Below, one piece after another: positions 1 through 16,251 of a DNA stretch of 19,084 bases. The stretch lies in IMG/VR virus record IMGVR_UViG_2744054976_000008, one strand, 5' to 3'. How positions within the stretch are numbered: position 1 is the first letter of the stretch; each line of letters opens with the position of its first letter. A program made the translations under genes and the position numbers. The notes under the pieces were generated by a model. It had not been told where the DNA came from and ran no database searches. It saw only the letters and a list, made by a program, of their open reading frames with translations. The DNA comes from a virus. Lineage: Duplodnaviria > Heunggongvirae > Uroviricota > Caudoviricetes.

Positions 1-124
1 TCCGGTATCTGATTATCTCCTGTGCCCACATCCCTTTTCGCCGCTTCTCCCAAACCAACGTTTATGAAAATGTAGAAATAACGAGCAAATGGCATCATCC
101 CTGCTTTTGTCAGGGAGATCTACC

Positions 125-613
125 ATGCTTATTGGCTATGTACGTGTGTCAACAAATGACCAGAACACAGATCTACAACGTAATGCGCTGAACTGTGCAG
201 GATGCGAGCTGATTTTTGAAGACAAGATAAGCGGTACAAAGTCCGAAAGGCCGGGATTGAAAAAACTGCTCAGGACATTATCGGAAGGTGACACTCTGGT
301 TGTCTGGAAGCTGGATCGGCTGGGGCGCAGTATGCGGCATCTTGTCGTGCTGGTGGAGGAGTTGCGCGAACGAGGCATCAACTTTCGTAGTCTGACGGAT
401 TCAATTGATACCAGTACCTCAATGGGACGCTTTTTCTTTCATGTGATGGGTGCCCTGGCTGAAATGGAGCGTGAACTCATTGTCGAGCGGACAAAAGCTG
501 GACTGAAAGCTGCTCGCGCACAGGGGGGATTGGTGATCACTGCCACAAACTTCTCGCAGATCAAAGGAAGCAGGCAGATGGCTACTTGCTTCAGAGTGCG
601 ATGCTTGATTTGA
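125..613 (+). pseudogene. Truncated serine recombinase / DNA invertase (Hin/Gin/Pin family) lacking the C-terminal HTH domain
   Basis: Track ORF 89..613; internal ATG at 125 is preceded by GGGAG. N-terminus MLIGYVRVSTNDQ carries the resolvase/invertase catalytic-serine motif and the conserved core runs to ...ERTKAGLKAARAQG. The protein then diverges and stops at ~160 aa with no recognisable helix-turn-helix in any forward frame. Confidence 0.7.
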
Positions 614-743: not shown

Positions 744-2945
744 TTAAAAGAGGACTCGAACACCAGCTTTTACGTTGAATGGAACCTCGATGTTTGAACC
801 TTTAGAGTAACCAAGCTCAGAATAAAAAGATGCATTTTTGCCCATCTTAGCATCAAGGCCTAAACTATAATTCCCGATGGTTCCCGAGTTATCATTGTTA
901 ATTTTTACACTGTCATTGATCTTAATATAGTTGTCATCAATGAATTCGTGTTCAAGTGATACTTTTAAGTATGGAGTAATATTAGTGTTTTGCCAAACAT
1001 TTAAGTTTGTCCCTAATTTAACCCCGGCTTCTCCTTTCAATGATCTGTCATTGCCCAAATCAGCCTTCATTCCATTGCTAATCTTAACTTCTTCATTGTT
1101 GGCCATGAAGTATTCTGTTCGTACATATGGAGTAACAAATGAATTATCAAACCAAGTATATTTGCCAAATTCTAATGCAGAACCAAAGCCAGTTTGTTTA
1201 AAATTAGCAGTAGCAATGTCGGACGAATCAATGATAATCTCCGTAGTGTTATCAAATCGGTTTCCTTTGATTAATCCATCAATGTAGAATCCGTTTTTGT
1301 GGATATAGGAACCGTATAAACCAACTGAGTAACTGTCAACATCAGAACGAGTCCCAGATTTTTCTTTTATTTTGTTTTGGGTAATACCAGCGGAGATACC
1401 AAAACTAAAATCGCCATGTTCTTTTGAAATGGTTTTGCCTAATCCATACTCAAAACCATTTTGTGTAAGTTTATATGGTTCATTCACACCATTATTAACA
1501 CGATAATCAGAGCTGATAAATCTTCCCCAAAGATGATTCCCTTCAATATCGGTCAAACTATTATTCAATCTATCAGAGATAGTATGAAATTCATTTGTAA
1601 ATATTGAAGATGCATAAGATGCCATTGAAAGAACAGTTTTTGCTGAGGATGAAAGTTGATCAGCATGCTGTCTTAAATACCAGTCATCATTATTTTTTTC
1701 TAATGTATAGACATATGAGCCAAGTTCAACTTTGCCACCGTCTAATTTAAAAGCATCAACACTACTATTACCAGCGTGAATCAGATGATATCCATCACTG
1801 CTTTCTTTACCGCTACCATTAATGCTAACTGTGTTGTTATCGCCAGAAAACTCGGAAATATTAAGAAAATCGCCATTCATACCTTCAACTTTCATAAAGA
1901 ACGAGGAGTTATTGGCGTTTAGTTTATTGACGTTCAGAGTTTTAAATTCTTTTAAATTTGTTGATAATTCACCATCAAAAGAAGAACGGAAATAAACAGA
2001 TGAGTTATCCAGTGTCATGTTGCTATTTGTAATATCATTAACAACATAAAGCTTGCTCTGACTAGATAGTGAAATATCTGCATCAGAACCCTCAGCCATA
2101 TAAATTTCAGCACCGTTTTTTAGAGTGGCATAGCCAGTTAAAATTCCAGTTTCACGAACAAAACCTAAACCACCGTCAAAACTTACATTTTCACCAGTTG
2201 CCTCTGGATCTATATCATATTGTCCACCAATGATGGTTGTATCTTTTGCATAGCCGCCAGTATTAATATCTTGACGGCCGCCTTTATTAACTACAACATT
2301 AAAGGCAGAACCATTTACACCAATATTTTGATAACCACCGTCATTGATAATGTCACCAGTAGTGATCCCTCCTTCGGTTACTACTTGTTTACCACCATTA
2401 ATAACGCTATTAGTTGCAGTCCCCCCTCTAACAAAGAACGCCCCATCATTGACAGTAGTGTTGAGGGACTCACCGTTAGCGTAAGTATAAAGACTCCCAC
2501 CACTTTCAATAGTGGTGTTTTCTGACTTTCCACCAGAATTTATATACTGTCGACCACCATTGGCTAATGTGCTATAAGCTGATTTAGCACCATCATTTAC
2601 ACGCTGGATACCCGTTCCAGTTATTTCTGCGGAATAAGATATAGCACCAGTATTTAAGGCCTGAATTCCGTTTATTATTTTGAAATTTTTGATGTCGGCG
2701 TTATTTACAGTGCTTTTACCACCATTAAGAATAATATCAGAAGCTGCTCCTCCAGAGTAAATGTATTGATGCCCGCCAGTAGTAATCATACTATTTGTAA
2801 TATTACCATAAACGGACTGCTTACCATCAATAACCTCATTGCTGACTTCTTTTCCTTTTGCAATATTTTGAGTAAATGATGCGGCTAAAGCTGTTGTTGG
2901 AATTGTAGAAGCTATTAACACAGCAATTGTTTTTTTATTAAGCAT
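744..2945 (-). CDS. Autotransporter (type Va secretion) adhesin-like protein, AIDA/Ag43-like passenger repeats
   Basis: Track ORF 744..2975 begins at a TTG; the likely start is the in-frame ATG at 2945 (MLNKKTIAVLIASTIPTTALA, signal-peptide-like). The passenger has many degenerate ~19-aa Gly/Asn-rich repeats (GGxQYIxSGG..., INGGK...). The C-terminus is beta-barrel-like with alternating aromatic residues and a terminal ...VRVLF. Confidence 0.8.
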   Translation of the reverse strand: MLNKKTIAVLIASTIPTTALAASFTQNIAKGKEVSNEVIDGKQSVYGNITNSMITTGGHQYIYSGGAASDIILNGGKSTVNNADIKNFKIINGIQALNTGAISYSAEITGTGIQRVNDGAKSAYSTLANGGRQYINSGGKSENTTIESGGSLYTYANGESLNTTVNDGAFFVRGGTATNSVINGGKQVVTEGGITTGDIINDGGYQNIGVNGSAFNVVVNKGGRQDINTGGYAKDTTIIGGQYDIDPEATGENVSFDGGLGFVRETGILTGYATLKNGAEIYMAEGSDADISLSSQSKLYVVNDITNSNMTLDNSSVYFRSSFDGELSTNLKEFKTLNVNKLNANNSSFFMKVEGMNGDFLNISEFSGDNNTVSINGSGKESSDGYHLIHAGNSSVDAFKLDGGKVELGSYVYTLEKNNDDWYLRQHADQLSSSAKTVLSMASYASSIFTNEFHTISDRLNNSLTDIEGNHLWGRFISSDYRVNNGVNEPYKLTQNGFEYGLGKTISKEHGDFSFGISAGITQNKIKEKSGTRSDVDSYSVGLYGSYIHKNGFYIDGLIKGNRFDNTTEIIIDSSDIATANFKQTGFGSALEFGKYTWFDNSFVTPYVRTEYFMANNEEVKISNGMKADLGNDRSLKGEAGVKLGTNLNVWQNTNITPYLKVSLEHEFIDDNYIKINDSVKINNDNSGTIGNYSLGLDAKMGKNASFYSELGYSKGSNIEVPFNVKAGVRVLF

Positions 2946-3391
2946 AATGAAACCAGTATATAAAGCGATGAACAACTAATTAATTAATATCTCGGGGCTA
3001 AAGAAATATATTCATGATTAATTGTATTAACAGGTGGTTAGTAGACTTGTCTTTTCCTCCAAAATTACATTTTAAAAACATTTTACTTGTAATTTTTTTT
3101 TGCAACAAATCGGTATAAATTTCACACAATGCTCGAAAAAAATGATAATTACACAGTGTTATAATAAGCATTGTTACCATGTTGTTGATGAAAGACACCT
3201 TAGTTTCATGGCTTATTATTTTAATTTGTATTATTGTGTATGTATGAAAGAAAACACAAGCGCGGATGGGACAAAACTGAGACACAAAAGGCCTCACAAT
3301 GGCTTGCAAGGCTTTACATGTTTTGATGTGGTGGGACGTGTGAGCGCAGTGTTGATGGGGTAATGCTTTGAATTAGAAGCGGATTCTTATA

Positions 3392-3437
3392 ATTCGTAAT
3401 GCGAAGGTCGTAGGTTCGACTCCTATTATCGGCACCA
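3392..3437 (+). tRNA. Partial tRNA-Thr(CGU) gene, 3' 46 nt only (pseudo-tRNA / att remnant, ptwF-like)
   Basis: ATTCGTAATGCGAAGGTCGTAGGTTCGACTCCTATTATCGGCACCA matches the anticodon loop (CGT) through the 3' CCA of E. coli tRNA-Thr (thrW) as recalled from memory. No D-arm or acceptor 5' half is present upstream. Confidence 0.7.
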
Positions 3438-3438
3438 T
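3420..3438 (+). repeat. attL core: 19-bp direct repeat CTCCTATTATCGGCACCAT
   Basis: Identical 19-mer recurs at 16108..16126. This copy is the 3' end of the tRNA-Thr fragment and sits immediately upstream of the integrase gene. Confidence 0.75.
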
Positions 3439-3601
3439 CACCTAGTTTTCCCAAGTCAACCCACATCAACAAAATCATTTAAAAACATATATATTACGTT
3501 GTTTTCATACGTTTGAGGTCAACCCTTGTCTCTTGAAATCAACACGCGGTTGGGGGCACAATCAGGGGCATGTTCTGTTCGGTCTAGGAAATGTGCCCCC
3601 A

Positions 3602-4792
3602 ATGATGCTGAATGCCCGCAAGGTTGAAGCTGCGAAAGGAAAAGAGAAGAGCTACAAGCTGTTTGATGGAGGTGGCCTATACCTTCAGGTCGAACCTAAT
3701 GGCTCGCGTTACTGGCGTATGAAATACCGTTTTGCTGGTAAAGAGAAACGATTGTCCTTTGGTGTTTATCCAACAGTCACACTTGCTGATGCCAGACAAA
3801 AACGAGAAGACGCGAAGAAACTACTCGCAGCAGGTGAAGATCCCGGCGAAGTCAAAAAAGCCAAAAAGCAGGCTTTAAATGCAGCGATTGAGACACTTAA
3901 CCCATTCAGAGAAGTGGCGTTAGAGTGGCACAAAATGAAATCACCCAAATGGTCTGAGGGCTATGCTTCCGACATCATTGAGGCATTCGAGAAAGACATT
4001 TTCCCGCATATTGGGCACAGACCTATAGCTGATATTCAGCCCCTTGAACTGCTTGAAGTTCTGAGGTTGATAGAAACTCGAGGCGCTATGGAGAAAGCGA
4101 AGAAAGTCCGTCAGCGATGCGGTGAAGTTTTTCGCTATGCCATCGTAACGGGTAGGGCAATCTACAATCCGGCACCGGATCTTGCCAGTGCGATGCAAGG
4201 ACATGAAGCAGTCCACTATCCATTCCTCAAAGCCAACGAACTACCGGAGTTCTTTAATGCCCTTAATTCTTATTCAGGAAGTCCAATTGTATTGTTGGGG
4301 GCGCATTTACTTATCCTGACAGGTCTACGAACTGGAGAACTACGAGCAGGTGAGTGGCGAGAGGTGGATTTTGATAATGCGGTGTGGGAGATCCCAAAAG
4401 AACGTATGAAAATGCGTAGGAGCCATATTGTCCCGTTGTCAAAACAAGCATTATCCCATCTCAAAAGTTTGAAAGAACTAACTGGGAACTACCCGCTGAT
4501 GTTCCCTGGACGCAACGATCCTAGCAAATTTATGAGTGAAGCAAGCATTAATCAGGTGTTTAAACGTATTGGATATGCAGGGCGTGTTACGGGGCATGGT
4601 TTCAGGCATACGATGAGTACAATCCTACATGAGAAAGGATTTAACAGCGCTTGGATTGAAACCCAGCTTGCTCATTCGGACAAAAACTCTATTCGTGGAA
4701 TTTATAACCATGCCCAATATCTCGAAGGGAGAAGAGAAATGATGCAATGGTATGCTAATTATTTATCTGAGCTAATTGGTACTCATAAATGA
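3602..4792 (+). CDS. int: Tyrosine-type site-specific integrase (P4-like, with N-terminal arm-binding domain)
   Basis: Track ORF 3533..4792 starts at a TTG; the likely start is ATG 3602 (MMLNARK...). N-terminus KSYKLFDGGGLYLQVEPNGSRYWRMKYRFAGKEKRLSFGVYP resembles the integrase arm-type DNA-binding domain. Catalytic signatures: LTGLRTGELR, HGFRHT and a C-terminal tyrosine region (GIYNHAQY). Confidence 0.9.
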   Translation: MMLNARKVEAAKGKEKSYKLFDGGGLYLQVEPNGSRYWRMKYRFAGKEKRLSFGVYPTVTLADARQKREDAKKLLAAGEDPGEVKKAKKQALNAAIETLNPFREVALEWHKMKSPKWSEGYASDIIEAFEKDIFPHIGHRPIADIQPLELLEVLRLIETRGAMEKAKKVRQRCGEVFRYAIVTGRAIYNPAPDLASAMQGHEAVHYPFLKANELPEFFNALNSYSGSPIVLLGAHLLILTGLRTGELRAGEWREVDFDNAVWEIPKERMKMRRSHIVPLSKQALSHLKSLKELTGNYPLMFPGRNDPSKFMSEASINQVFKRIGYAGRVTGHGFRHTMSTILHEKGFNSAWIETQLAHSDKNSIRGIYNHAQYLEGRREMMQWYANYLSELIGTHK

Positions 4793-5613
4793 ATATTTTA
4801 AAAATTAATAATACTGATTCTCTGCTCAGAGATTACTACCAGTTGGATGAAGCTTCAGAAAAAATTGGTTGTAGTGAAAAGGATATACTCTGGTTTGCCA
4901 GAGAACGAGATGTAGAGCTATGCATGGAATTCCATGATGATGAGTATGATGTTTCATGTGGTTTGAAGATTGATGGTCAAATGGATGAGTTCTTATCTAA
5001 TCTGAAATATTTACCACGAGATAGAAATGGCAATATTATGTTGTCAGACTTAAGTTCTATAAGAATCCCTGATGAAGATAATTTAATTGATAAAAATGGT
5101 TTTATTCGATGTTTCATATCCGGTTTATGGGCTGTTGATTATGAATATAAAGATCTGTTAGTTAAGCATGAGGGGCAACCGGATTCCTGGCCTATTCATT
5201 TTCTACTGGCGGGTACGCCTAATATAAATTGTAAGGTAATTCTTTATGTAAATTATGATGAAAAAGAAAATTATTATCTTTTTGAGGTTTTGTGGATTAC
5301 AAAGGTACAGATTCAAAAATTCATTGATATAGTCTTATGCGAACAAAAGCGGATAAAAAACGCCAATAAATATAAATCACAATCTGAGGCGCAAAAACAA
5401 AAACATGCTGTTCCTCGAGCTGAAATACTCATGGCTATTATTTCGCTCTATCATCGTGATATGAGGCTAAGAAGAGAGAGTCCAGCAGCGATAGCTGATT
5501 ATCTTTTTCAACATGCCAGTGAGTTCTGGCCTAAGACCGGAGAACCGCCTTTGAGCTATGATACTGTTGTTAGTTTGCTACGTAGTTGCATGAAAAACAT
5601 TAAGTTTAACTAA
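4789..5613 (+). CDS. Hypothetical protein (274 aa), AT-rich, translationally coupled to int; possible N-terminal HTH
   Basis: Its ATG overlaps the int stop (ATGA at 4789-4792). The ORF is long, uninterrupted and AT-rich, with no motif I can assign; the N-terminal segment LDEASEKIGCSEKDILWFARE is HTH-like by eye. Confidence 0.6.
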   Translation: MNILKINNTDSLLRDYYQLDEASEKIGCSEKDILWFARERDVELCMEFHDDEYDVSCGLKIDGQMDEFLSNLKYLPRDRNGNIMLSDLSSIRIPDEDNLIDKNGFIRCFISGLWAVDYEYKDLLVKHEGQPDSWPIHFLLAGTPNINCKVILYVNYDEKENYYLFEVLWITKVQIQKFIDIVLCEQKRIKNANKYKSQSEAQKQKHAVPRAEILMAIISLYHRDMRLRRESPAAIADYLFQHASEFWPKTGEPPLSYDTVVSLLRSCMKNIKFN

Positions 5614-5738
5614 ATATTAACAATTATTGTGGCTAATGATTTTGGATTTTTTTCATTAGTCACATTTTTCTCATTTATAACCTATGTTTTAATTTTCCGT
5701 GTTGAAGCCAATAGACTTAGATAAACGGAGAATGATGA

Positions 5739-6029
5739 ATGTTATCTAAACATGATAATACTACTTTGCAACGACCTTCAATGGATTCTCTGATCGATAT
5801 GAAGTTTATTACTTCCGATTGTTTATTAAGTGATAAATGGATTTATCGATTGATTTCTCTGAATCGCTTTCCAAAACCTATAAAAATAGGTCGGATGTCA
5901 CGATGGCGCGCTGCTGATTATTATAAGTGGCGAGATGGGTTTGAAGAAAACTCAGGTCAACATTTTGAGGGAATGAGAAATAAGGCAAGAGCAATTAATA
6001 AAGGGAATAGATTATCACCTACTCCCTAA
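5739..6029 (+). CDS. alpA: AlpA-family phage transcriptional regulator / excisionase-like DNA-binding protein
   Basis: GGAG lies 9 nt upstream of ATG 5739. Core MKFITSDCLLSDKWIYRLISLNRFPKPIKIGRMSRWRAADYYKW resembles AlpA/Xis-type winged-helix proteins (FPKPxKxG...W...W). Confidence 0.7.
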   Translation: MLSKHDNTTLQRPSMDSLIDMKFITSDCLLSDKWIYRLISLNRFPKPIKIGRMSRWRAADYYKWRDGFEENSGQHFEGMRNKARAINKGNRLSPTP

Positions 6030-6061
6030 GCCTTAATTGATAGTTAGTAATATTTAACTGA

Positions 6062-6235
6062 TTAGCCTTTAGGGTCAATCCCGCGTGATTGGAGTTCTTT
6101 GCGTAAAATTCTTTTAATCCAAGTTGCCAACGCGCTATCTCCATCTTTGCGCATTTCGTTTTCGAGTTGCAACCTAAAATCGTCGGTAAGACGCATTTGG
6201 AATGGTGGAGAACGTTTCTCTTGTGGTGTTGACAT
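6062..6235 (-). CDS. Arc/Mnt-like ribbon-helix-helix repressor (58 aa); absent from the ORF track (below its size cutoff)
   Basis: Manual minus-strand translation from ATG 6235..6233 to TAA 6064..6062 gives MSTPQEKRSPPFQMRLTDDFRLQLENEMRKDGDSALATWIKRILRKELQSRGIDPKR. The PPFQMRLTDDFRLQLENEMRKDGDS segment parallels the P22 Arc N-terminal beta-strand and helix A (PQFNLRWPREVLDLVRKVAEENGRS, from memory). Confidence 0.55.
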   Translation of the reverse strand: MSTPQEKRSPPFQMRLTDDFRLQLENEMRKDGDSALATWIKRILRKELQSRGIDPKG

Positions 6236-6275
6236 GGTAATTACCCTAGAATATGATGACTACATGGTAATTACC
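6233..6275. promoter_or_regulatory. Twin operator-like palindromes: two copies of ACATGGTAATTACC, each with a perfect 10-bp palindrome GGTAATTACC, 30 bp apart
   Basis: Direct repeats at 6233-6245 and 6263-6275; GGTAATTACC is self-complementary. The first copy overlaps the start codon of the minus-strand RHH gene. The region is the divergent control region between the RHH gene and the rightward early operon. Confidence 0.55.
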
Positions 6276-6303
6276 ATTGTAAGTATAGTTCGCTTGTAAA
6301 AGC

Positions 6304-6338
6304 AATGCCCGATTGTGCGGGAACACAAATCGGGCATT
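6304..6338. promoter_or_regulatory. Perfect 11-bp inverted repeat AATGCCCGATT / AATCGGGCATT with a 13-nt loop (regulatory hairpin or weak leftward terminator)
   Basis: Seen directly. On the minus strand it is followed by GCTTTTAC; on the plus strand there is no U-tract. It lies at the transition from the AT-rich to the GC-rich part of the element. Confidence 0.35.
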
Positions 6339-6366
6339 TAACCAACCGTTATAAGAGGTAACGAAG

Positions 6367-6543
6367 ATGGCTAAACAGAAGTGTACCTGGTTATTTGCGG
6401 CGATCAACCGCAGTCAACGCAATGCCCGTCCTGTGATGTTAAGGATCACCGCAGATAACGAGCGGTCAGCGCGGCGCAGACTTGCCCCGGACTATGTACT
6501 GAGCTTTGCCGGGCGCATTCCCTGCGGAGGTGAACATGCGTAA
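6367..6543 (+). CDS. Small protein (58 aa), possibly Icd-like host cell-division inhibitor of P4-type elements
   Basis: AAGAGG lies 8 nt upstream of ATG 6367. Translation: MAKQKCTWLFAAINRSQRNARPVMLRITADNERSARRRLAPDYVLSFAGRIPCGGEHA. Its stop overlaps the next gene's start (ATGCGTAA). Not in the ORF track (under 60 aa). The family assignment rests on recollection only. Confidence 0.4.
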   Translation: MAKQKCTWLFAAINRSQRNARPVMLRITADNERSARRRLAPDYVLSFAGRIPCGGEHA

Positions 6544-6895
6544 TTATCCGCACCCCGGCGAACGCTGGCAGCATGAACGTGGCTGGACGGTCACGATTAT
6601 CCGATTAATAGAAGCCTCGCCCTCTGTGGCGCTGGTTAATCCTGAATTCAGCTGTGAAGTGCTGATACGTCATGACAGCGACAACCAGCTTTCTTCCTGC
6701 CCTCTGGCATGGTTTGAACAGCGGTATACGCGCCTGTTTGATGTACCGCTCTTTAAGCCTGCACCAGCTCCTGCAGGCGGTAGTGGTTCCGGCCCGCTGA
6801 CACTGCATCCGTCTGTGCTATTTATCCGCTGGCGGGAGCGTAGCATATGGCGTTCTGCTGAGCCTGACGACGGTCACTATTCAAAGTTTCTCTGA
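6536..6895 (+). CDS. Hypothetical protein of the P4-like early operon (119 aa)
   Basis: Track ORF 6506..6895; the likely start is ATG 6536 with GGAGG 7 nt upstream. Collinear and overlapping with its neighbours. Confidence 0.55.
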   Translation: MRNYPHPGERWQHERGWTVTIIRLIEASPSVALVNPEFSCEVLIRHDSDNQLSSCPLAWFEQRYTRLFDVPLFKPAPAPAGGSGSGPLTLHPSVLFIRWRERSIWRSAEPDDGHYSKFL

Positions 6896-6926
6896 CAAAA
6901 TACCGCTGAAAACGGAGTAATCCACG

Positions 6927-7211
6927 ATGAATATTTCAAACGGGCACAACGGTGCTCAGGGCCACACTTTGCCTGAAAAACACAATACCGGTGCTTTTGC
7001 CTATGGGTTGTCAGAGGACAGTTTCGGAAAGCTGACCCGCGCAAGAAATGCCTGCGACATGCTCCAGCTTCTCTTTTCTGAATACCCGTCTCAGGCCGGA
7101 GCACTGGACGCTGGCTGTGCGCATGGTGTCGCCGCGCTGATGGAGTACCTGCGGGCAGATTTGACGGATATTGCACACAGTTGCGCACTGATTGAAGGAG
7201 GTGCCAGATGA
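6927..7211 (+). CDS. Hypothetical protein of the P4-like early operon (94 aa)
   Basis: Track ORF; GGAG upstream; its stop overlaps the next start (ATGA at 7208-7211). Confidence 0.55.
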   Translation: MNISNGHNGAQGHTLPEKHNTGAFAYGLSEDSFGKLTRARNACDMLQLLFSEYPSQAGALDAGCAHGVAALMEYLRADLTDIAHSCALIEGGAR

Positions 7212-7591
7212 ACCAGCCGCAGGTTTCCATTTTCCCGGCAGAAATGACCACCGCGCTTTACCGGCGAGCTATTGCTTCAGCATGGCGGCAGAAAATGCTG
7301 AACGAAACTGGCAGTGATCAGTATGGTCCGCACAGCCTGACGGTGGAGCGTATTGAAATGGCCATTGCGCTGCATATCGAGTGCGTACTGATTAACGAGT
7401 ACGGCGAAGTGCAGGGCGCCGCTGCCGCGCTGGCACTGCTGACTGACATGCTGGAGCCGTCACTGCTAACCGCACCGCCGGTACTGACCGCGCGCGGCTG
7501 TGAAGTGATGGCGGAGATGTACCGCACGCTTCCGGCGGCCTTTGATGACTTCTGCAGTACCGGTGTGACGTTGTATGAGGGGGAAGTATGA
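7208..7591 (+). CDS. Hypothetical protein of the P4-like early operon (127 aa)
   Basis: Track ORF; GAAGGAGG upstream; ATGA overlap with the primase gene start at 7588. Confidence 0.55.
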   Translation: MNQPQVSIFPAEMTTALYRRAIASAWRQKMLNETGSDQYGPHSLTVERIEMAIALHIECVLINEYGEVQGAAAALALLTDMLEPSLLTAPPVLTARGCEVMAEMYRTLPAAFDDFCSTGVTLYEGEV

Positions 7592-10260
7592 CAATACAGA
7601 CGGTTACGCAGATTTCAGCCGCCGCACGGGGGAAATGGCCCGTTATTCTGCAGATGCTGCGTATTGATGTACCTGAAAACGGCAGGCACGGTCCCTGCCC
7701 GAAATGTGGGGGCAAGGATCGTTTTCGCCTTGATGACCTTGACGGGCGCGGGACGTGGATCTGCAGCCAGTGTGGCAATGGTGATGGTCTGGATCTGGTT
7801 AAGCTCGTAACCGGTTACAGCGTCAGAAAGGCTGCGCAGGAGGTGGCGCAGGTGCTTAATGTGCCGGATGTGCAGGAACTGCCTGTTAAGCCTGCCAGAC
7901 AAAAAGCCCCTAAACGCGACATGGGTCTTACCGTGGCGGCGCTGATGAAAGAGAGCCACACGGGAGAAAGCGCCTATCTGACAGAAAAAGGGTTCGCCGG
8001 ATACCCGGCCTCTCTGACCGGAAGCGTGCAGCATATCAGCGGTAAGGATTTCCCTGCCGGTTCCCTGCTGTTACCACTCACGACCAACACCGGAGCCGTG
8101 ACCGGTGCACAGCTTATCGCCCCGACGGGTGAAAAAAGCATACTGCCCGGCAGCACGATGAAAGGCGCGTTTGTGTCGCTCAGCCCGTTACCGTCTGAAC
8201 CACCGGTACAGGTGGTGATTACCGAAGGTTACGCTACGGCGCTGACGGTAAGCCAGCTCACTGCCGGATGCGTAGTGGCTGCCATATCTGCGGGCAACCT
8301 GCCCAATGTGGCGCAGTCGCTGCGGGCACGCTGGCCTGAGGTAAAAATTATCATCGCCGGTGATAACGATTTTCAGGACGGGGGTGAGAATCCCGGCAGA
8401 GCCTTTGCTGAACGGGCGGCAAAAGCTGTTGGCGGTTGGATGACGCTGCCACCAGGAGAGATTAAGGCTGACTGGAATGACTTTCATCGGGAGCACGGTA
8501 TTACCCGTGCCCGTGAAGCCTTTCGCAACGGTCTGGTACTGTGCGGGGAAGGCCGCACGCAACTGCCGCACGGGTTCCGTCTTACCCAGGAATATCTCTG
8601 GTATGAAAAGCAGGTACAGCGCAACGGTGAGACGGAGATCCAGAACGTCAAAATATGCAGCCCGCTGCGCGTGACGGCAATCACCTGCGATGCCGATGGC
8701 GGTAACTTCGGACGACTGCTGGAATGGGAAGATACGTGGGGTGAGCGTCGCCGCTGGGCGATGCCGATGGAAATGCTGAGCGGCAGTGGTGAGGAACTGC
8801 GCCGGGTACTGCTGGTTAACGGGCTGTCTTATATCAGCACCACCGGCGAGGCACGCGCACGCCTGATGGAATATATCTCACTGTGTAAACCGGAACGCCG
8901 CGTGACCTGCGTCAGCCGTACTGGCTGGCATGGTCAGGTTTACGTCCTGCAGGATGAGGTCAGCGGTGAAGGTGCAGAGGGTGTCATTCTCCAGACCACT
9001 TCCGTGCAGGGGCGTGATTTCCGCGTGTCGGGCACAACAGAGGAATGGCGGGAGAACGTATCCCGCTACTGTGCCGGCAACTCCCGCGTGGCATTTGCTG
9101 TCAGCCTGGCCTTTGCTGCACCACTGTTACGGCTGGTTGGTATGGACGGCGGCGGCTACCACCTCAAAGGGGAATCGACAGACGGTAAGACCACCACCAT
9201 GAAAGCGGCAACCTCCGTCTGCGGCGGGCCTGACTACTGGCAGACATGGCGGGCCACCGGCAACGCGCTGGAGGGATGCGCCAGCCGCCGCAACGATGCC
9301 GCCATGATGCTTGATGAGATCCGGGAAGTTGACGGACGCGAGGCAGGCAATATCGCCTACATGCTGGCAAACGGTCAGGGCAAGGGCCGTGCCGGTACGG
9401 ACGGTGAGCTGCGTACCCGTAAGCAGTGGCGCCTGTTGTTCTTTTCAACTGGCGAGTTGTCTCTGACCGAACATGCGGCAAAGGCCGGTGAGCGTACTTT
9501 TGCCGGGATGGAAGTCAGGATGATCCAGATCCCCAGCGATTCCGGGAAATTTGGCGTTTTTGAGGAACTGCACGGCTTCGACAGCGGCAAGGCTCTGGCA
9601 GAGCATCTTGAATGGGCCACGTCCTGCTACTACGGTTCGCCGTTCCGGGAGTGGCTGAAAGTACTGACCGCTGATCTTAATGGACTAACGGCACAGGCAA
9701 AATCGCTGATGAAGGAATATGCTGCCGCCCTGACTCCGAAAGATGCAGGCAATCAGGTGGGCCGGGCTGTGAATCGCTTTGCACTGGTGGCGATGGCGGG
9801 TGAACTGGCAACCCGTCTGGGTATCACCGGCTGGCCTGAGGGTGAAGCACTGCGGGCAACCCGCGTCTGCCTGAACGCATGGCTGAAAGATCGCGGGCAC
9901 ACCGCCAATCAGGAAGATATTGCCGCACTGGAGCAGGTTCGCAGTTTCTTTACCGCGAATCAGTACAGCCGCTTTGCAGACTGGTATGACGAGCGCAACC
10001 GCCCCGGCAATATGGTGGGCTGGCGCAGGGTGGAGAAAGGCAGTACCGCGCAGGGCACGGAAGCTGTCACTACGTTCTATGTCATGCCGTCCGGCTGGAA
10101 AGAAATCTGCAGGGGATTTGACCCGCGCAAGGTGGCGCGTCTGTGCGCAGATCGTGGATACCTGCTCCCCTCCACTGATGGCAAACTCCAGACAACCATT
10201 CGCCCGCCAGAGATGAATCCCCGCAGGCTCTATGTCTTCAACAGCAAGGTGCCGGGTTAA
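7588..10260 (+). CDS. P4 alpha-like bifunctional DNA primase-helicase (zinc ribbon + Toprim + P-loop NTPase)
   Basis: 890 aa. N-terminal Cys4 zinc ribbon CPKCGGKDRFRLDD...WICSQCG; Toprim signatures VVITEGYATA and IIIAGDNDFQDGG; Walker A GESTDGKTT in the C-terminal half. Confidence 0.85.
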   Translation: MTIQTVTQISAAARGKWPVILQMLRIDVPENGRHGPCPKCGGKDRFRLDDLDGRGTWICSQCGNGDGLDLVKLVTGYSVRKAAQEVAQVLNVPDVQELPVKPARQKAPKRDMGLTVAALMKESHTGESAYLTEKGFAGYPASLTGSVQHISGKDFPAGSLLLPLTTNTGAVTGAQLIAPTGEKSILPGSTMKGAFVSLSPLPSEPPVQVVITEGYATALTVSQLTAGCVVAAISAGNLPNVAQSLRARWPEVKIIIAGDNDFQDGGENPGRAFAERAAKAVGGWMTLPPGEIKADWNDFHREHGITRAREAFRNGLVLCGEGRTQLPHGFRLTQEYLWYEKQVQRNGETEIQNVKICSPLRVTAITCDADGGNFGRLLEWEDTWGERRRWAMPMEMLSGSGEELRRVLLVNGLSYISTTGEARARLMEYISLCKPERRVTCVSRTGWHGQVYVLQDEVSGEGAEGVILQTTSVQGRDFRVSGTTEEWRENVSRYCAGNSRVAFAVSLAFAAPLLRLVGMDGGGYHLKGESTDGKTTTMKAATSVCGGPDYWQTWRATGNALEGCASRRNDAAMMLDEIREVDGREAGNIAYMLANGQGKGRAGTDGELRTRKQWRLLFFSTGELSLTEHAAKAGERTFAGMEVRMIQIPSDSGKFGVFEELHGFDSGKALAEHLEWATSCYYGSPFREWLKVLTADLNGLTAQAKSLMKEYAAALTPKDAGNQVGRAVNRFALVAMAGELATRLGITGWPEGEALRATRVCLNAWLKDRGHTANQEDIAALEQVRSFFTANQYSRFADWYDERNRPGNMVGWRRVEKGSTAQGTEAVTTFYVMPSGWKEICRGFDPRKVARLCADRGYLLPSTDGKLQTTIRPPEMNPRRLYVFNSKVPG

Positions 10261-10293
10261 GGCTTTGCGTGAGTCTTATTTATTAAGGGTAAC

Positions 10294-10482
10294 AGGTGAA
10301 ACAGGTGGAACAACCGTATTTTACAGGGCTGAACCTGTTCCACCTTCTGAAATAGTGAGGTGGAACAGATGTAACGCCAGCCAATCCGCTGTTCCACCTT
10401 GTTACCCGCGATGTTCCACCGGTGCAGTGCATATAAATGCTTTACAAAACAAAGCAGTAACACATGTTTCACCTGTTCCACC
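10294..10482. repeat. Iteron array: eight copies of the 9-mer TGTT(C/T)CACC in both orientations; putative P4-type ori/crr
   Basis: Copies start at 10294 and 10304 (reverse orientation), 10336, 10359 (reverse), 10390, 10412, 10465 and 10474. They sit in the non-coding gap between the primase gene and the Psu-like gene. P4 ori/crr is built from a repeated TGTTCACC-type octamer bound by alpha (from memory). Confidence 0.6.
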
Positions 10483-10660
10483 GCATAAGGGACATACAGC
10501 AGACTGAAACAGAGGGCATTTTTATCTGGCTGGCTTTCATAGCCACGTCTGAATAACCGCAATCGCGCGTTGTGCCAGCCACCATACACTGAGCACCGAT
10601 AGTGTGCTTGTGTCAGCCACGACACAATTTACGTAACGAATCAACCCGACAGGAGAAGTC

Positions 10661-11422
10661 ATGAACAACACCGCAGTGAATAACAATCTTTCCTCTTTTC
10701 CGGCTGTAACGCAGCGGGCACTGGAAACCATGAACACAGCCAGAAACGCATGGCTTGAAGCACGTCGTCAGCAGAAAGCGGCAGCGGATAATATTGCGAC
10801 AATCCGCCAGCGCCGCGCTGAAATGGAAGCCACGACTAACGCGCTGAATGAGGAGTGGCGCACGCTGTTTCGTGAAAGTCAGGGCGTAGTCTCAAAGGAA
10901 ATGAAAAAACTGCGTACGGAAATTGCGCTGGGGCGTGAAACGCTTGAGGATTTTGATGAGCTGCTGACTGCTCAGGAAAGCGAAAATGCATTATTACCGC
11001 AGGAAGCCGGGAAATTAGCCGGGCAGTATATCAGCGCACATAACACCCTTGTGGAAATTCGCGCAAAGCAAATCTGGGAAGACTTCATGCAGTCGCATGG
11101 AAAAGCGCTTATTCAGACGCTGAGCCTGCTTAAATCAACAATGGGCCGGGAAGCCAGTGCTGTTGTGGGTGTGGTGAATTCAGTTAATGACCCGGACACA
11201 GTGCTGAAAGACTTTATTCATAAACATATCACCAGACCGGCTCTGGCTAACGATGCGATGCCTGAACAGGACCCGGTGTTTAAACTGGCGGGAGTTGCCC
11301 CGGATTATGCAGCTCTTGCTGATTTCCGCAAAATTCCTTCTCCGGCAGCCCTTCATAAAATGAAGATCCGGCAGGAACGTGAGGAACTACAAAAACGTAA
11401 CCGAGCTGCGGAGGGTATCTGA
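10661..11422 (+). CDS. P4 Psu-like (polarity suppression) or Sid-like coiled-coil protein
   Basis: 253 aa, strongly helical and charged; AGGAG upstream. The segment SAHNTLVEIRAKQIWEDFMQSHGKAL resembles my recollection of P4 Psu; the gene lies immediately upstream of an Ogr/Delta gene as in the P4 late operon. Psu versus Sid cannot be resolved without an alignment. Confidence 0.5.
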   Translation: MNNTAVNNNLSSFPAVTQRALETMNTARNAWLEARRQQKAAADNIATIRQRRAEMEATTNALNEEWRTLFRESQGVVSKEMKKLRTEIALGRETLEDFDELLTAQESENALLPQEAGKLAGQYISAHNTLVEIRAKQIWEDFMQSHGKALIQTLSLLKSTMGREASAVVGVVNSVNDPDTVLKDFIHKHITRPALANDAMPEQDPVFKLAGVAPDYAALADFRKIPSPAALHKMKIRQEREELQKRNRAAEGI

Positions 11423-11694
11423 TGGCATTGAAATGTCCTTTCTGTTCAGCCATTGCACATTGTCGAGCCAGTGTGTACGAAGCCCCCTCTGTAAAGAAAA
11501 CGTACTACCAGTGCCAGAATCTGGAATGTTCAAGCACTTTTACGGCGCTTGAATCAGTGCATACCATTATCACCCGCCCGCAGAAAGAAGAGAATACGCA
11601 GACAGTAGAGGAGGCTACAGACAAAAAAGGGCAGACACTGAATCGCTATGGCTCTGCATCCAAGCTTTCCAGCCGCCAACAAATCCCTGTCTGA
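11422..11694 (+). CDS. Ogr/Delta-family zinc-finger late transcription activator
   Basis: MALKCPFCSAIAHCRASVYEAPSVKKTYYQCQNLECSSTF has the C-x2-C...C-x4-C spacing and YxCxN motif of P2 Ogr / P4 Delta. Start overlaps the upstream stop (TGATG). Confidence 0.8.
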   Translation: MALKCPFCSAIAHCRASVYEAPSVKKTYYQCQNLECSSTFTALESVHTIITRPQKEENTQTVEEATDKKGQTLNRYGSASKLSSRQQIPV

Positions 11695-11709
11695 TTCTCC
11701 CCTACATAC

Positions 11710-11733
11710 TCCCGGTCCTGAGCCGGGATTTTT
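11710..11733 (+). terminator. Rho-independent terminator after the Ogr/Delta gene
   Basis: TCCCGG-TCCTGAG-CCGGGA stem-loop followed by TTTTT, 16 nt after the stop codon. Confidence 0.7.
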
Positions 11734-12312
11734 ACGCCTTTTCTTGGCTGGCTTGAGGACGTATGAGTGCATGTCTATGGCGCATGAAAACGCATGAGTT
11801 CCATGCACCAATTTTGACGCGAAAGCCCTTGTGTTGCGGTTCCTGAGACGATTTACGGGGTGCATGAAAACCATTCTGTTAAGCGAAATGGGTAGGCGGG
11901 CGGGGCTGCGCACGTGGTAGGGCTAAATGGTCAATTCTGGTGCAATTCGCGAAACTCAGTCAGTTTCAATAGATGTAAGTGTTGCTGGGGGAGATTCGCT
12001 ACTTTTTGGTATCCTAAATCGTATGGTTCGATGTTGATCATCTTTTCTTCGCACCTGCAGAGATATCAATTAAATGTGAACAAATAAGAGTCTGGATCTT
12101 CCCATATCGCTAAAACCGCCAGTATTGTTAGGGATGATGCCCATATTATGCGGTGGGGACCAGCGAGCCGCCAACTTGTCAGCGTGGCCTACACAATTTC
12201 ATGCAGGTGACTGAAACTATTACATTAAGTGGTCAAGTGTAGCGAGGATGCGATTGCGCGCAACGATGTAAAGAGTTATAAAAGCATAAAGGATAGTACT
12301 GTGAGGGGGGTT

Positions 12313-13590
12313 ATGAACCGGCAGCCATTTACTTCATCAGCACTTAAGCGTAACTTGAGTGAAAGTGAGAAGAGTTTTTATTTTAATAAAAACAATGTGG
12401 ATAAATTAGAATCATTAATCAGTGATGCTGTTTTAATTGCCAGCGAAAATTTTCGTTCTGGAGTAACTGTAAAGAAAATAAATATCAAAGGACGTTGTGT
12501 TTACAACGCATCTTGTTTAAAAGAAAAACTAATACTTAGACATTGTAATGCAAACTTAAAATGTTTGGAGTCACTTCTACCCAAACAAAGAAATAAAATA
12601 ATTGATGAGCTTAAAATTTATCTCAAAGAAGGTGCACAATTCCGAGTGTATCGCTTAGATATAAAATCTTTTTTTGAATCTATCGATTTGCCTCAGCTCT
12701 TTCAATATTTGCAAGATGAACGGCGTTTATCCAGACATACTAAAAATTTGATAGAATGGTATCTTAAAGCTTGTGAAAGAATCCATTCATCAAAAGGTTT
12801 GCCAAGAGGACTGGAGATTAGTCCTATGTTATCTGAGCTATATTTGGCAGCATTTGATAGTAGTATTCATCGGCATTCAGAAGTGTTTTATTACTCTCGC
12901 TTTGTAGATGATATGGTGATCATTTCAAGTGGAAATGAATGCCCATCGACTTTAATGAAACAAATACAAAGTTTGTTACCCAAGGGATTAAGTTTAAATA
13001 CAAATAAGTTGAAGGTGTCCCCACTTATCGACAAAAGAAGCAAAGGCACGGCAGGTAAAGATAAATTACTCCATAAATTTGATTTTTTAGGTTACTCTTT
13101 TTCTGTAATAGATTCTCCTCTAAGTAACAAAGGTGCTACTTTAAGTGTATATAGAAAAGTAACTGTAGATTTATCTCGTGGACGCATAAAAAAAATTAAA
13201 ACTAGAATAGCAAAAGCTTTCTACTCCTACCATAGAACTGGTGATTTTAAATTGTTATTAGATAGAATTTCTTTTTTAACAAGCAATAGAGATTTAAATA
13301 GGAAGATTAGATCATTAAGTTCATTAGAGAAAGGTAAGGTTAGTACTGGAATTTATTATAGTAATGCAAGATTGGATGTAAATTCTATATCCTTAAAGCA
13401 ATTAGATGATTTTTTATTATATTGTGTTAAATCGAACAACGGACGTTTGCATAGTATTGCGAAACATTCCTTCACTGTAAACCAAAGAAAGGAGTTATTG
13501 CGCAATAGTTTTAGAAAAGGTTTTGTTGATAGAGTTTATAGGAAGTACAATTTCAAACGTTACACTGAGATCACAAAAATATGGCTATAA
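12313..13590 (+). CDS. Reverse transcriptase 1 (about 425 aa; defence-associated RT, candidate DRT3a/UG3-like)
   Basis: Track ORF 12229..13590 starts at a GTG; the likely start is ATG 12313 with GAGGGGGG upstream. RT motifs: RLDIKSFFESID (motif 1/2-like), GLPRGLEISPMLSELYLAAFD (motif B-like), YYSRFVDDMVIIS (catalytic F-x-D-D, motif C), LHKFDFLGYSF. Strongly AT-rich codon usage unlike the flanking backbone. Confidence 0.8.
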   Translation: MNRQPFTSSALKRNLSESEKSFYFNKNNVDKLESLISDAVLIASENFRSGVTVKKINIKGRCVYNASCLKEKLILRHCNANLKCLESLLPKQRNKIIDELKIYLKEGAQFRVYRLDIKSFFESIDLPQLFQYLQDERRLSRHTKNLIEWYLKACERIHSSKGLPRGLEISPMLSELYLAAFDSSIHRHSEVFYYSRFVDDMVIISSGNECPSTLMKQIQSLLPKGLSLNTNKLKVSPLIDKRSKGTAGKDKLLHKFDFLGYSFSVIDSPLSNKGATLSVYRKVTVDLSRGRIKKIKTRIAKAFYSYHRTGDFKLLLDRISFLTSNRDLNRKIRSLSSLEKGKVSTGIYYSNARLDVNSISLKQLDDFLLYCVKSNNGRLHSIAKHSFTVNQRKELLRNSFRKGFVDRVYRKYNFKRYTEITKIWL

Positions 13591-15599
13591 AGAAAAATGT
13601 AAAACTTGATAAGAAGGATTACCTCAGGGCTTTACTATGTGATACGCAACCAGGTGACTGTCCCATCATCTTTTCAAATGATGGATTGTATTTGAACCTG
13701 ACCGAGTTTGAAAATCATTATAAGGAGATTTTGTATTTCTCTCCCCTTTCTTCATTCGTAAAGAAAATTATTAATCCTGCTTTTGATTTGTCTATAAAAA
13801 TAGAAGAACGAGAAAAAGACAAGAAGAAACAAAGCTTTCCGTTTGGCTATTGCATTGTCAAGGATGCTTTTAGTTTAAGATATCTTTCTTTAATTCATCC
13901 CAGATCGCAACTTAATTATTGTGAGTTTTATAAAAATTACTCAACTGTTATAACATTAAATGCGTCAAAAAGTAATTACTCTATAAGATATCCTCGAAAG
14001 GTCGCAAACTCATTCTTCTTATATGAAAATAATGCCTCAGAGAAATATAAAGGAGAGGATATTGAAACAACAAATGATGAATTAATGAGGAAGTATTCAT
14101 CATCTTATTTTTCTTATGGCGGATTTAATAGGATATATAAGTTATTTCAAAGTAAAATGTTTTTTGATCTTGAGAAAAGATTCTCAATAATGTGGATGTT
14201 AGATGTATCACATTGTTTTGATAGTATATATACTCATTCTATTTCATGGGCTTTAAAAAATAAACCTTACATCAGAAAACATGTGAAATATAGCAATCAA
14301 TTTGGTCAGGAACTAGATACGTTGATGCAACGTAGTAATAATAATGAAACAAATGGTATACCTATAGGCTCAGAATTTAGTCGGGTCTTTGCTGAGTTAA
14401 TATTCCAGCGTATCGATTGTAGTATTGAATCAAATCTTTTTGATGAATACGGGTGGGTTAATCACGAGGACTATGTGATATTAAGGTATGTGGATGATTT
14501 TATAGTGTTTTGCAACAATGAAGCAAATGCTGAACTTATCACTAAAACCATTAACGTGAAGCTAAATGATTTTAATCTTCAGTTAAATATCAATAAACTT
14601 AAAAAATATTCTAGACCATTCTGCACTAGCAAGACAGGATTGATCATTAAAGTTAACGAACTAGTGCGGAATCTTGAAGGTAAATTATATAAAAGGATTG
14701 ATGGTGACATTTTTCTAAATAAGATTAGAAGCAAGCATGATTTAAAAGTGAATATGATAAATAATATCAAGTCTATATGTGTTGATAACAAGGTTTCTTA
14801 CACGGATATTTCCTCGTATCTGATATCTTCATTATCAAAAAGATTAATATTAATTATTGATTTCTTTCCGGTGGAAAAGATTAAAGGTGATGTTGAAATA
14901 CGTAAGAATATTAAAGATATTATATTTTTAGTAACTGATATAATGTTGTTTTTCTTCAGTGTTAACCCAACTGTGTCATCTTCATATAAATTATCAAAAA
15001 CAATGGTTATCGTTAATGATTATTTGAAAATGCTTTCAAGTGATTATAGCAGTATTTTTATGACAACATTAATAGATACTGCTGAAAATATCAATTTTGG
15101 TGAAAATGACAATGGTCTTTTTATTGATGGGTTTATTTCCATAGAGAAAGTTAATTTGATATTAGCTGCTACTTTTTTTGGGGATAATTATCTTGTAAGC
15201 ACTTCTTTCTTTAATGGTATTATACATAAAAAGAAATTGGATTACTTTACAATAATCTCATTATTATTCTATTTTAGAAATAGAAAACCTTATCAAGAAC
15301 TTAAACATATTGTTGAGGTTAGAATTAAAGATTTGCTATATCCTGATATGGATTTATTACAATCATCGGAAAAGGCACATTTATTCTTGGATGTTATGTC
15401 TTGCCCATTTGTTTCAATTGAGACAAGACGATTTTTGTACAGAAAATATCTCAAAAAATATGAGAAAAATGTGAATAGAAGCCATTTGGAAATTGAGAGC
15501 GATCTGCAATCTATGCTCAAAACTTATTGGTTTGTCAAGTGGGATGAGTTAGATCTTGTAAAGATGATTGAGAAAAAAGAATTGAAAGAAAGTTATTAA
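13581..15599 (+). CDS. Reverse transcriptase 2 (672 aa, with a long C-terminal extension; candidate DRT3b/UG8-like)
   Basis: ATG 13581 overlaps the RT1 stop by 10 nt. RT motifs: MLDVSHCFDSIYTHSISW (motif A-like), GIPIGSEFSRVFAELIF (motif B-like), ILRYVDDFIVF (YVDD catalytic motif), LQLNINKLKK. About 300 aa follow the fingers/palm region. AT-rich. Confidence 0.8.
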   Translation: MAIKKNVKLDKKDYLRALLCDTQPGDCPIIFSNDGLYLNLTEFENHYKEILYFSPLSSFVKKIINPAFDLSIKIEEREKDKKKQSFPFGYCIVKDAFSLRYLSLIHPRSQLNYCEFYKNYSTVITLNASKSNYSIRYPRKVANSFFLYENNASEKYKGEDIETTNDELMRKYSSSYFSYGGFNRIYKLFQSKMFFDLEKRFSIMWMLDVSHCFDSIYTHSISWALKNKPYIRKHVKYSNQFGQELDTLMQRSNNNETNGIPIGSEFSRVFAELIFQRIDCSIESNLFDEYGWVNHEDYVILRYVDDFIVFCNNEANAELITKTINVKLNDFNLQLNINKLKKYSRPFCTSKTGLIIKVNELVRNLEGKLYKRIDGDIFLNKIRSKHDLKVNMINNIKSICVDNKVSYTDISSYLISSLSKRLILIIDFFPVEKIKGDVEIRKNIKDIIFLVTDIMLFFFSVNPTVSSSYKLSKTMVIVNDYLKMLSSDYSSIFMTTLIDTAENINFGENDNGLFIDGFISIEKVNLILAATFFGDNYLVSTSFFNGIIHKKKLDYFTIISLLFYFRNRKPYQELKHIVEVRIKDLLYPDMDLLQSSEKAHLFLDVMSCPFVSIETRRFLYRKYLKKYEKNVNRSHLEIESDLQSMLKTYWFVKWDELDLVKMIEKKELKESY

Positions 15600-15870
15600 T
15601 CTGATAGAAATATAACTGTGGTCAGTTTCAAAATACTTACGTTATTATTGTTGATGTGTTTTTGCGTTGGCAGTAATACGATTTCGCTGGATCTGAAATC
15701 GGCTTAATTGCTTAAACTTAAGTTAATAAATTTGCTTAAGATCCGATCCTGTTAAGCAGGAGAAGGAGCTTTCAGGTTCAGTTGAGAGTAGTTGCTAGCT
15801 GTTTATAGCTTAACCAGAACAGCTTGTGGTGCTTACACACCTGATGTTGAGAAACTGGCCACACCTACGC

Positions 15871-16006
15871 CCATGCTTCCCATGCTTCCNNNNNNNNNNN
15901 NNNNNNNNNNNNNNNNNNNNNNNNNNNNNNNNNNNNNNNNNNNNNNNNNNNNNNNNNNNNNNNNNNNNNNNNNNNNNNNNNNNNNNNCCATGCTTCCCAT
16001 GCTTCC
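15871..16006. repeat. 9-bp tandem repeat (CCATGCTTC) interrupted by an unresolved 98-nt run of N (15890..15987)
   Basis: Two full units plus one base are visible on each side (15871-15889 and 15988-16006). The right-hand units are exactly in phase with the left (117 nt = 13 x 9), so the gap is consistent with 11 hidden units, about 15 in total. N bases are not biological sequence. Confidence 0.6.
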
Positions 16007-16107
16007 AGAGCTGTAAATGGAACTAAATTGTGGGGCATGTATGGGGGCATATCATTTTAAATAAATTATTATTTTCTTGTTTTTCAGTTTGTTATGTGCA
16101 TGTTTTG

Positions 16108-16126
16108 CTCCTATTATCGGCACCAT
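16108..16126 (+). repeat. attR core: 19-bp direct repeat CTCCTATTATCGGCACCAT
   Basis: Identical to 3420..3438. Here only the terminal 18 nt plus one base of the tRNA-like sequence are present; upstream sequence does not match the tRNA. Confidence 0.75.
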
Positions 16127-16251
16127 TAAAATCAAAGAGTTACCCCATATTTAAATACACCACGTTTCCTCCTGTGCCGTATTTGTGCCATTGTAACCTT
16201 GGCAATTCATCAAAATACTGTTCTGACATCAGGCAGTGCAGGTGCAGACAT

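Follow-up and report, generated by a model that had tools for sequence, protein, structure and literature searches.

Gene X encodes a protein of 274 amino acids (aa) and lies at positions 4789 to 5613 (plus strand) of a 19,084-nucleotide stretch of DNA, the IMG/VR virus record IMGVR_UViG_2744054976_000008. This whole stretch is called the window here. It is Escherichia coli DNA with a 12.7-kb P4-like satellite, from about 3420 to 16120, integrated at thrW. X is the second gene of that satellite and sits between the integrase gene int (3602 to 4792, plus strand) and alpA (5739 to 6029, plus strand). The main finding is that X is a fixed, vertically inherited backbone part of one lineage of P4-like, or phage-inducible chromosomal island (PICI)-like, satellites with the gene order int-X-alpA.

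X is also a real protein-coding gene under purifying selection. Its family is undescribed: there is no Pfam, NCBIfam or PHROG model for it, no structure, and no literature by accession.

A coding gene with relatives

The ATG of X overlaps the TGA of int as ATGA, and X has a GC content of 34.4%, versus 44.8% for int. An earlier note on this DNA, made from the letters alone, had reported the overlap and the AT-richness and had recognised no family, and all of this stands. Searched alone and as a profile, X has no family match in Pfam, PHROGs, NCBIfam, PADLOC or the PDB sequences. There is no tblastn match in 50,697 phage records, and a literature search by protein accessions returned nothing on the protein.

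The same note called X an orphan, which it is not, given that full-length relatives are found across the Gammaproteobacteria. In Pantoea, Erwinia, Citrobacter and Enterobacter a word-indexed search picked up 18 clusters, with proteins of about 275 aa that are 54-61% identical. When 1.84 billion representative proteins were searched with a profile, 44 X-family clusters came up, mostly of about 250-300 aa with some shorter fragments; the second round brought in members from Aeromonas, Arsukibacterium and Rheinheimera. Every source labels the relatives as hypothetical; one UniRef entry, of a second allele class, reads 'DNA-binding protein'. The exact protein of the window is present on 901 contigs. 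X occurs in 66 of 5,426 complete E. coli genomes, and the second allele class (31% identical) in 11 more.

For X, the ratio of nonsynonymous to synonymous substitution rates (dN/dS) comes to 0.11 when the comparison is with an E. coli copy of 92.7% identity, and to 0.10 with Citrobacter. Its length and its N- and C-terminal motifs are kept in 16 close and 34 broad homologues, and reading frame and length hold over 20-60% identity in many genera. The earlier note had held that its proposal would fall if the open reading frame (ORF) were not translated; the low dN/dS and the frame and length kept across genera speak against that. The Shine-Dalgarno sequence of the window copy is weak.

Some copies of X are broken. 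In E. coli NZ_CP128592.1 (H2) the match is broken in two, and the annotation has an IS1 transposase between the parts. In E. coli NZ_CP178675.1 (H54) and in two further loci, L008 and L086, the ORF is divided into two and the other parts of the element are retained.

Conservation of position

A set of 80 loci encoding relatives of int, one per species, was scanned with a hidden Markov model of the X family. Wherever int is at least 80% identical, which is the case in 12 loci, a homologue of X lies directly 3' of int and is followed by a homologue of alpA (12/12, L008 and L086 with their split ORF included). X is absent from all 68 loci in which int is 71% identical or lower, and hardly any of them carries a homologue of alpA or the primase within 6 kb. 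These 68 are other kinds of island. No empty site was found at the position of X among the close relatives examined.

This bears on the proposal in the earlier note that X fills a variable cargo slot. Within the lineage it does not: every close relative keeps a homologue in place, and the divergence of that homologue follows the primase and DUF5375, not int. The comparison of presence and absence that the note suggested does have a second side. X is constant in the lineage with int at 80% or more, and unrelated genes take its place in more distant satellites, so at the family-wide scale the position does act as a variable site. The gene right after int is a NucC-like PD-(D/E)xK nuclease (DUF6602) in L073 (7830-8696), a DUF6387 protein in L077 (7183-8010) and a 276-aa protein of no recognised family in L050 (7293-8120). 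The 276-aa ORFs of L077 and L050 were considered as remote homologues of X and ruled out, the first being DUF6387.

Gene order reaches well beyond the close relatives. Elements in Pantoea and Erwinia, with int 63-64% and X 54-59% identical, share it through primase, psu and delta; the defence cargo that follows delta differs from that of the window element. In distant members (Aeromonas, Arsukibacterium, Rheinheimera and metagenome islands) X has an integrase gene before it and a small gene after it. The small gene is a recognisable alpA in all but L098, where it encodes 61 aa and has no Pfam match. The replication module of these distant islands is a DUF927 primase, or DnaB with HTH_36, and three of the islands adjoin smpB. 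On the 8.5-kb contig of L099 the genes are int, X, alpA, primase and SSB, plus one more that is complete and one that is truncated, and no others.

The gap between X and alpA is 99-125 nt in loci with a recognisable alpA, and 125 nt in the window. In Arsukibacterium and Rheinheimera two small genes lie between int and X, and the adjacency of X and alpA stays tight.

The earlier note had also said that homology to a conserved P4-family core gene would make X backbone rather than cargo. X is backbone in its own lineage, and there it is conserved as well as the P4 core genes are, but it is not a canonical P4 core gene. That core consists of int, psu, delta, sid, alpA, epsilon/ash and alpha (PMC8628076, PMC13586616), and X belongs to none of these seven families. 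Like canonical P4, the element does have int, alpA, an Icd-like gene, DUF5375, an alpha-type primase, psu and delta. Its order, int-X-alpA...alpha-psu-delta-hotspot-att, differs from the prototypical P4 order (PMC8628076).

Two genes from known elements were compared with X and rejected. The yfjH gene of K-12 CP4-57, between intA and alpA, is on the opposite strand and unrelated (hhalign probability 0.2%). EcCIMP1_002, between int and alpA of a PICI at thrW, cannot be X because its size is about 10% of UvrB (PMC11773190).

The satellite of E. coli AH02 (L004), which has the second allele, retains int-X-alpA, lacks psu and carries Kiwa as cargo. Between its alpA and Icd-like gene there is a gene annotated as a P2-family major capsid protein (15214-16218).

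Separate histories of int and X

Over the 12 loci, the identity of X correlates with that of the primase (r 0.93) and of DUF5375 (r 0.96), and not with that of int (r 0.01). In strain AH02 int is 95% and X 31% identical, and in Pantoea int is 64% and X 59%. Alleles of X are 24-31% identical even where int is 80-95% identical. In Citrobacter the synonymous divergence dS is 1.11 for int and 0.27 for X. The co-inheritance with the integrase that would mark a directionality factor is thus absent.

Since X tracks the primase and DUF5375 and not int, the junction between int and X is a recombination boundary. The discordant histories place the breakpoint at or just inside the 3' end of int; the drop in GC begins within the last ~200 nt of that gene (4600-4792). 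Judging by these sequence comparisons, the module that gets swapped is int, and X moves together with the satellite's core for regulation and replication.

AT-rich composition

X is 9-23 GC points below int, the replication gene and host DNA in every host examined. In Aeromonas, for example, X has 41.7% GC, and 36% at third codon positions (GC3), versus 60.3% for int (GC3 76) and 64.4% for the host flank. X is also lower in GC than alpA in every locus, by just 3 points in metagenome element L091.

A bias kept across such divergence is no sign that X was imported recently. It suggests that low or silenced expression is selected for, or that there is a constraint at the level of the DNA.

Protein domains and fold

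The predicted structure of X starts with a winged helix-turn-helix (HTH) of excisionase/MerR type (residues ~12-45). The structure and the family alignment together then delimit an acidic (isoelectric point, pI, 4.5), beta-rich and hypervariable middle domain (46-172), a long helix with a basic, conserved linker that is predicted to be disordered (173-205), and a helical, conserved C-terminal domain (206-268). Averaged over pairs of family members, identity is 33% in the N-terminal part, 10.5% in the middle and 37% in the C-terminal part. The 127 residues of the middle domain are spread over 266 alignment columns. The C-terminal domain has the family signature ERHAxxRExVLxAA...FWPxxGxPPLSxDxI, and the basic linker is invariant in the enterobacterial group, as YKxQSxAQKQKHAxPR. 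The protein as a whole has a pI of 5.4.

The earlier note had taken the N-terminus for HTH-like by eye. The model bears this out, in that the predicted fold is a winged helix of the MerR/excisionase type, with the strand-helix-turn-helix-wing arrangement of the HTH_17/Phage_AlpA superfamily. In structure comparison it resembles the excisionases Pukovnik Xis, TorI and the GIsul2 AlpA-type excisionase. In a second model without residues 1-44 (pLDDT, the predicted local distance difference test score, 84.1) the excisionase-type matches are all lost.

The search for remote homology and structure that the note had proposed thus yielded this fold, and no match to any described sequence family. The window protein matches no Pfam HTH model even at E<=1. 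Of its relatives, 3 out of 34 touch HTH_17 weakly, with a best E of 0.023. The middle and C-terminal domains have no convincing structural relative in the PDB, and Foldseek of X against BFVD gave nothing at E<=0.001. X defines a new protein family, the fold of which is probably new as well.

Compared with HTH_17/Phage_AlpA proteins, X shares the predicted winged fold, but it stays below every Pfam HTH model and has ~230 extra residues, with two more domains without recognisable relatives. The N-terminus was considered as a paralogue of AlpA and rejected: it has no detectable sequence similarity to the neighbouring AlpA. Known directionality factors (Xis, Vis, TorI) are basic, single-domain proteins of ~55-100 aa. 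X is not like that, with 274 aa, its acidic pI and three further segments.

The int-X transcription unit

Start distances were compared in 13 loci. Wherever the start of X is unambiguous it lies between -4 and +7 nt from the int stop, so the overlap or abutment of the two genes is retained, and most of these loci have a GGAG-like Shine-Dalgarno within the end of int.

Directly after the stop of X, every enterobacterial locus has an inverted repeat and then a run of T's. In the window this is a hairpin with TTTTT at 5628 to 5669 (plus strand; arms 5628-5638 and 5654-5664), found by RNA folding and covariation. In an alignment of 12 loci, 7 of the 11 pairs of this helix have changes in both arms, and the paired fraction of cells is 90.6%. 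Taken over the whole structure, both helices included, it is 80.8%, whereas slid controls reach 41-52%. The G-U pairs of the helix work on the plus strand only, which makes this an RNA hairpin. It is read as the intrinsic terminator of the int-X transcript.

A simple promoter scan found no promoter-like site in the 125-nt gap between X and alpA. It missed the terminator because of the long loop and the AT-rich stem. Rfam has no family in this gap. Because of the terminator hairpin and the overlap of start and stop, int and X most likely form a two-gene unit that ends before alpA.

The gap has a second, possible hairpin at 5693 to 5732 (plus strand), in which TTTTCCGT (5693-5700) would pair with ACGGAGAA (5725-5732). 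Its second arm contains the Shine-Dalgarno of alpA. The inverted repeat recurs with different sequences in several allele classes, such as AATCCTCTC...GAGAGGAAT in L014; covariation is weaker here, with 67.7% of cells paired. Tentatively, this leader hairpin could sequester the Shine-Dalgarno of alpA.

Proposed role

Of the roles considered, the observations fit best with X as a DNA-binding regulator that is made with Int in the integrated state and acts on the adjacent alpA switch. This is put forward tentatively, at somewhat below an even chance. Translation of X would be coupled to int, and the two would be transcribed together as a two-gene unit. Coupled translation and a shared transcript would mean that there is no Int without X, and thus that X is produced in the integrated state. 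X would then bind DNA sequence-specifically nearby, at the promoter or leader of alpA and possibly at the int promoter or the att region. Most likely it would hold off, or tune, the AlpA-driven programme of excision and replication. Its fast-evolving middle domain would meet a variable partner, for example a helper-phage protein, and the basic linker and C-terminal domain would contact a conserved one, be it DNA or a protein of host or satellite.

The weak HTH_17 matches in three relatives and the UniRef label of the second allele support DNA binding. The conserved ends (33% and 37%) around a hypervariable middle (10.5%) resemble the architecture of a sensor.

Several observations weigh against X as such a regulator. 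No homology points to any function of X, and no repeated operator-like motif near int or alpA stands out statistically; a search for repeats around these two genes and X turned up nothing beyond short, AT-rich pairs, judged unconvincing. X is acidic overall. The element has other candidate regulators, namely AlpA and a 57-aa protein on the minus strand (6062-6235), and the latter, beside the best promoter-like site (6229-6257), could be the main repressor. Elements with an inactivated X, by the IS1 insertion or in the three loci with split ORFs, do persist. Finally, strong, conserved AT-richness together with fast divergence is likewise typical of defence and counter-defence genes.

A narrower form of the regulator proposal would make X the helper-phage sensor of its lineage: a repressor that keeps alpA silent until a helper protein captures the middle domain. 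Excision and replication of Gram-negative PICIs have AlpA as their master activator, and in the EcCIMP1 study alpA is switched on by helper induction (PMC11773190). In X the winged helix and the C-terminal module would silence alpA, and capture of the middle domain would release the block; the AT-richness would then reflect selection for an expression that is low and silenced. By analogy this is conceivable, and on the whole it is rather doubtful.

The analogy is with the Stl master repressors of staphylococcal pathogenicity islands (SaPIs), which have an N-terminal HTH, a position between int and the excision and regulatory genes, and divergent alleles. X is similar in size, has a predicted N-terminal HTH and sits in a comparable place. 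Its alleles are strongly divergent too, with a variable part that could meet helper-phage proteins. There are differences: X has no sequence relationship to Stl (no PHROG match at all), and Stl is divergently transcribed, whereas X lies downstream of int and is co-directional with alpA, with a terminator in between. The likeness would therefore be analogy without homology.

Alternative roles

X could instead be an accessory (moron-type) gene expressed from the integrated satellite, such as a defence, superinfection-exclusion or anti-defence protein fixed beside int. This is unlikely, but it deserves serious consideration. Expression with int would mean expression in the lysogen, and X is AT-rich in every host, as the Aeromonas figures illustrate; the DRT3 cargo is AT-rich too. 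PADLOC, however, finds nothing for X or three relatives except a marginal HTH-only match, and X has no recognisable enzymatic or effector domain. The strong divergence between alleles under a well-conserved int would suit an accessory gene, except that this divergence follows the primase. Other int-alpA satellites do have unrelated genes at the position, the NucC-like nuclease and DUF6387 among them, but synteny is strict in all loci examined, close relatives offer no empty site, and X is retained in L099, which has few other genes on its contig.

It is rather improbable, though also to be taken seriously, that X assists recombination as a physical partner of Int, in the manner of an architectural or directionality factor that, for instance, favours integration or blocks excision until AlpA is made. 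The excisionase-type N-terminal fold, with its likeness to Pukovnik Xis, TorI and the GIsul2 protein, fits this role, and the att site is just upstream of int. Translational coupling is often found for partners that are made in a fixed ratio, and coupling to int is retained in the 13 loci. The identities of X and int are uncorrelated, however (95% for int with 31% for X, 64% with 59%), which means that the two modules recombine freely. It is also int that is parted from X by two small genes in Arsukibacterium and Rheinheimera, and not alpA. X is acidic and 3-4 times the size of known directionality factors, and the element already has an AlpA/Vis homologue.

The chance that the ORF is untranslated, and the AT-rich stretch a non-coding spacer or decaying remnant, is practically nil: the weak Shine-Dalgarno of the window copy and the occasional disruption of X would fit it, but the dN/dS of 0.10, the frame and length retained over 20-60% identity in many genera, the confident structure prediction and the GGAG-type Shine-Dalgarno at the end of int in most other loci do not.

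The satellite and its surroundings

The left attachment site is a 3' fragment of the tRNA-Thr gene thrW (3392 to 3437, plus strand), identified by alignment with the intact tRNA-Thr that precedes this int in strain C21. Inside it lies the 13-nt att core CTCCTATTATCGG (3420-3432, plus strand). An exact second copy at 16108 to 16120 is the right att core; two matches occurred in 0/200 shuffles. With only the 3' part of thrW in the window, ARAGORN reports no tRNA there. Strain C21 has this element immediately at the intact thrW, with proA alongside.

The genes of the satellite are, in order, int, X, alpA, the 57-aa minus-strand gene, the Icd-like gene, two small genes, DUF5375, the alpha-type primase (7588-10260), psu, an ogr/delta zinc-finger gene and Drt3a/Drt3b. 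The product of int is a P4-type tyrosine integrase with arm-binding, central and catalytic domains (Pfam Arm-DNA-bind_3, Phage_int_M and Phage_integrase), and its RefSeq equivalent also starts at 3602. The next gene after X, alpA, encodes a small HTH regulator of AlpA/Vis type, for which PHROG gives excisionase/regulator. It matches Pfam Phage_AlpA at E 4e-4 and 20.6 bits, slightly under the 21-bit curated cut-off.

The 57-aa gene (protein MSTPQEKRSPPFQMRLTDDFRLQLENEMRK...) is conserved, being present in the Pantoea and Erwinia elements as well. It has no Pfam or PHROG match; to the eye its product looks like an Arc/CopG ribbon-helix-helix repressor. The promoter-like site beside it (plus strand, TTGACA-17-TATGAT) is the best sigma-70-like site of the region. 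It stands ahead of the operon from the Icd-like gene to the primase, and is divergent from the 57-aa gene.

At 6301-6372 (minus strand), overlapping the start of the Icd-like gene, Rfam gives a sub-threshold match to the SymR antisense RNA (31.6 bits, E 0.0025; the gathering score is 61). This could be an antisense regulator of c4/CI type, or chance.

The defence reverse transcriptases Drt3a and Drt3b (12229-15599; PADLOC E 1e-130 and 3e-200; 27-32% GC) occupy the hotspot that follows delta. SMC/AAA-type genes or Kiwa take their place in Pantoea, Erwinia and E. coli AH02.

To the left of the thrW fragment are a DNA-invertase-like gene (89-613, plus strand) and an autotransporter with AIDA and pertactin domains (744-2975, minus strand, 33-40% GC). 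This DNA is part of a neighbouring island, and the satellite sits in a tandem array of islands at thrW. Other strains differ here, with a restriction-modification system in PRO_A-1462 and insertion sequence (IS) elements in others, which means that the thrW array itself is variable. The PICI EcCIMP1 also integrates at thrW (PMC11773190).

Significance

HTH proteins in the module that serves integration and regulation of a satellite are familiar, and this is the likeliest kind of protein for X; the family itself is undescribed. Whatever the role of X turns out to be, the cargo reading is corrected, and there is a new family with a probable new fold, and recombination at the junction of int and X.

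For the way in which Gram-negative satellites under AlpA control perceive their helper phage, X is an obvious candidate, because it is a conserved, predicted DNA-binding protein with a fast-evolving middle, placed between int and alpA in every member of its lineage. If X is indeed the helper-phage sensor, it would be a Gram-negative counterpart of SaPI Stl, made from unrelated parts.

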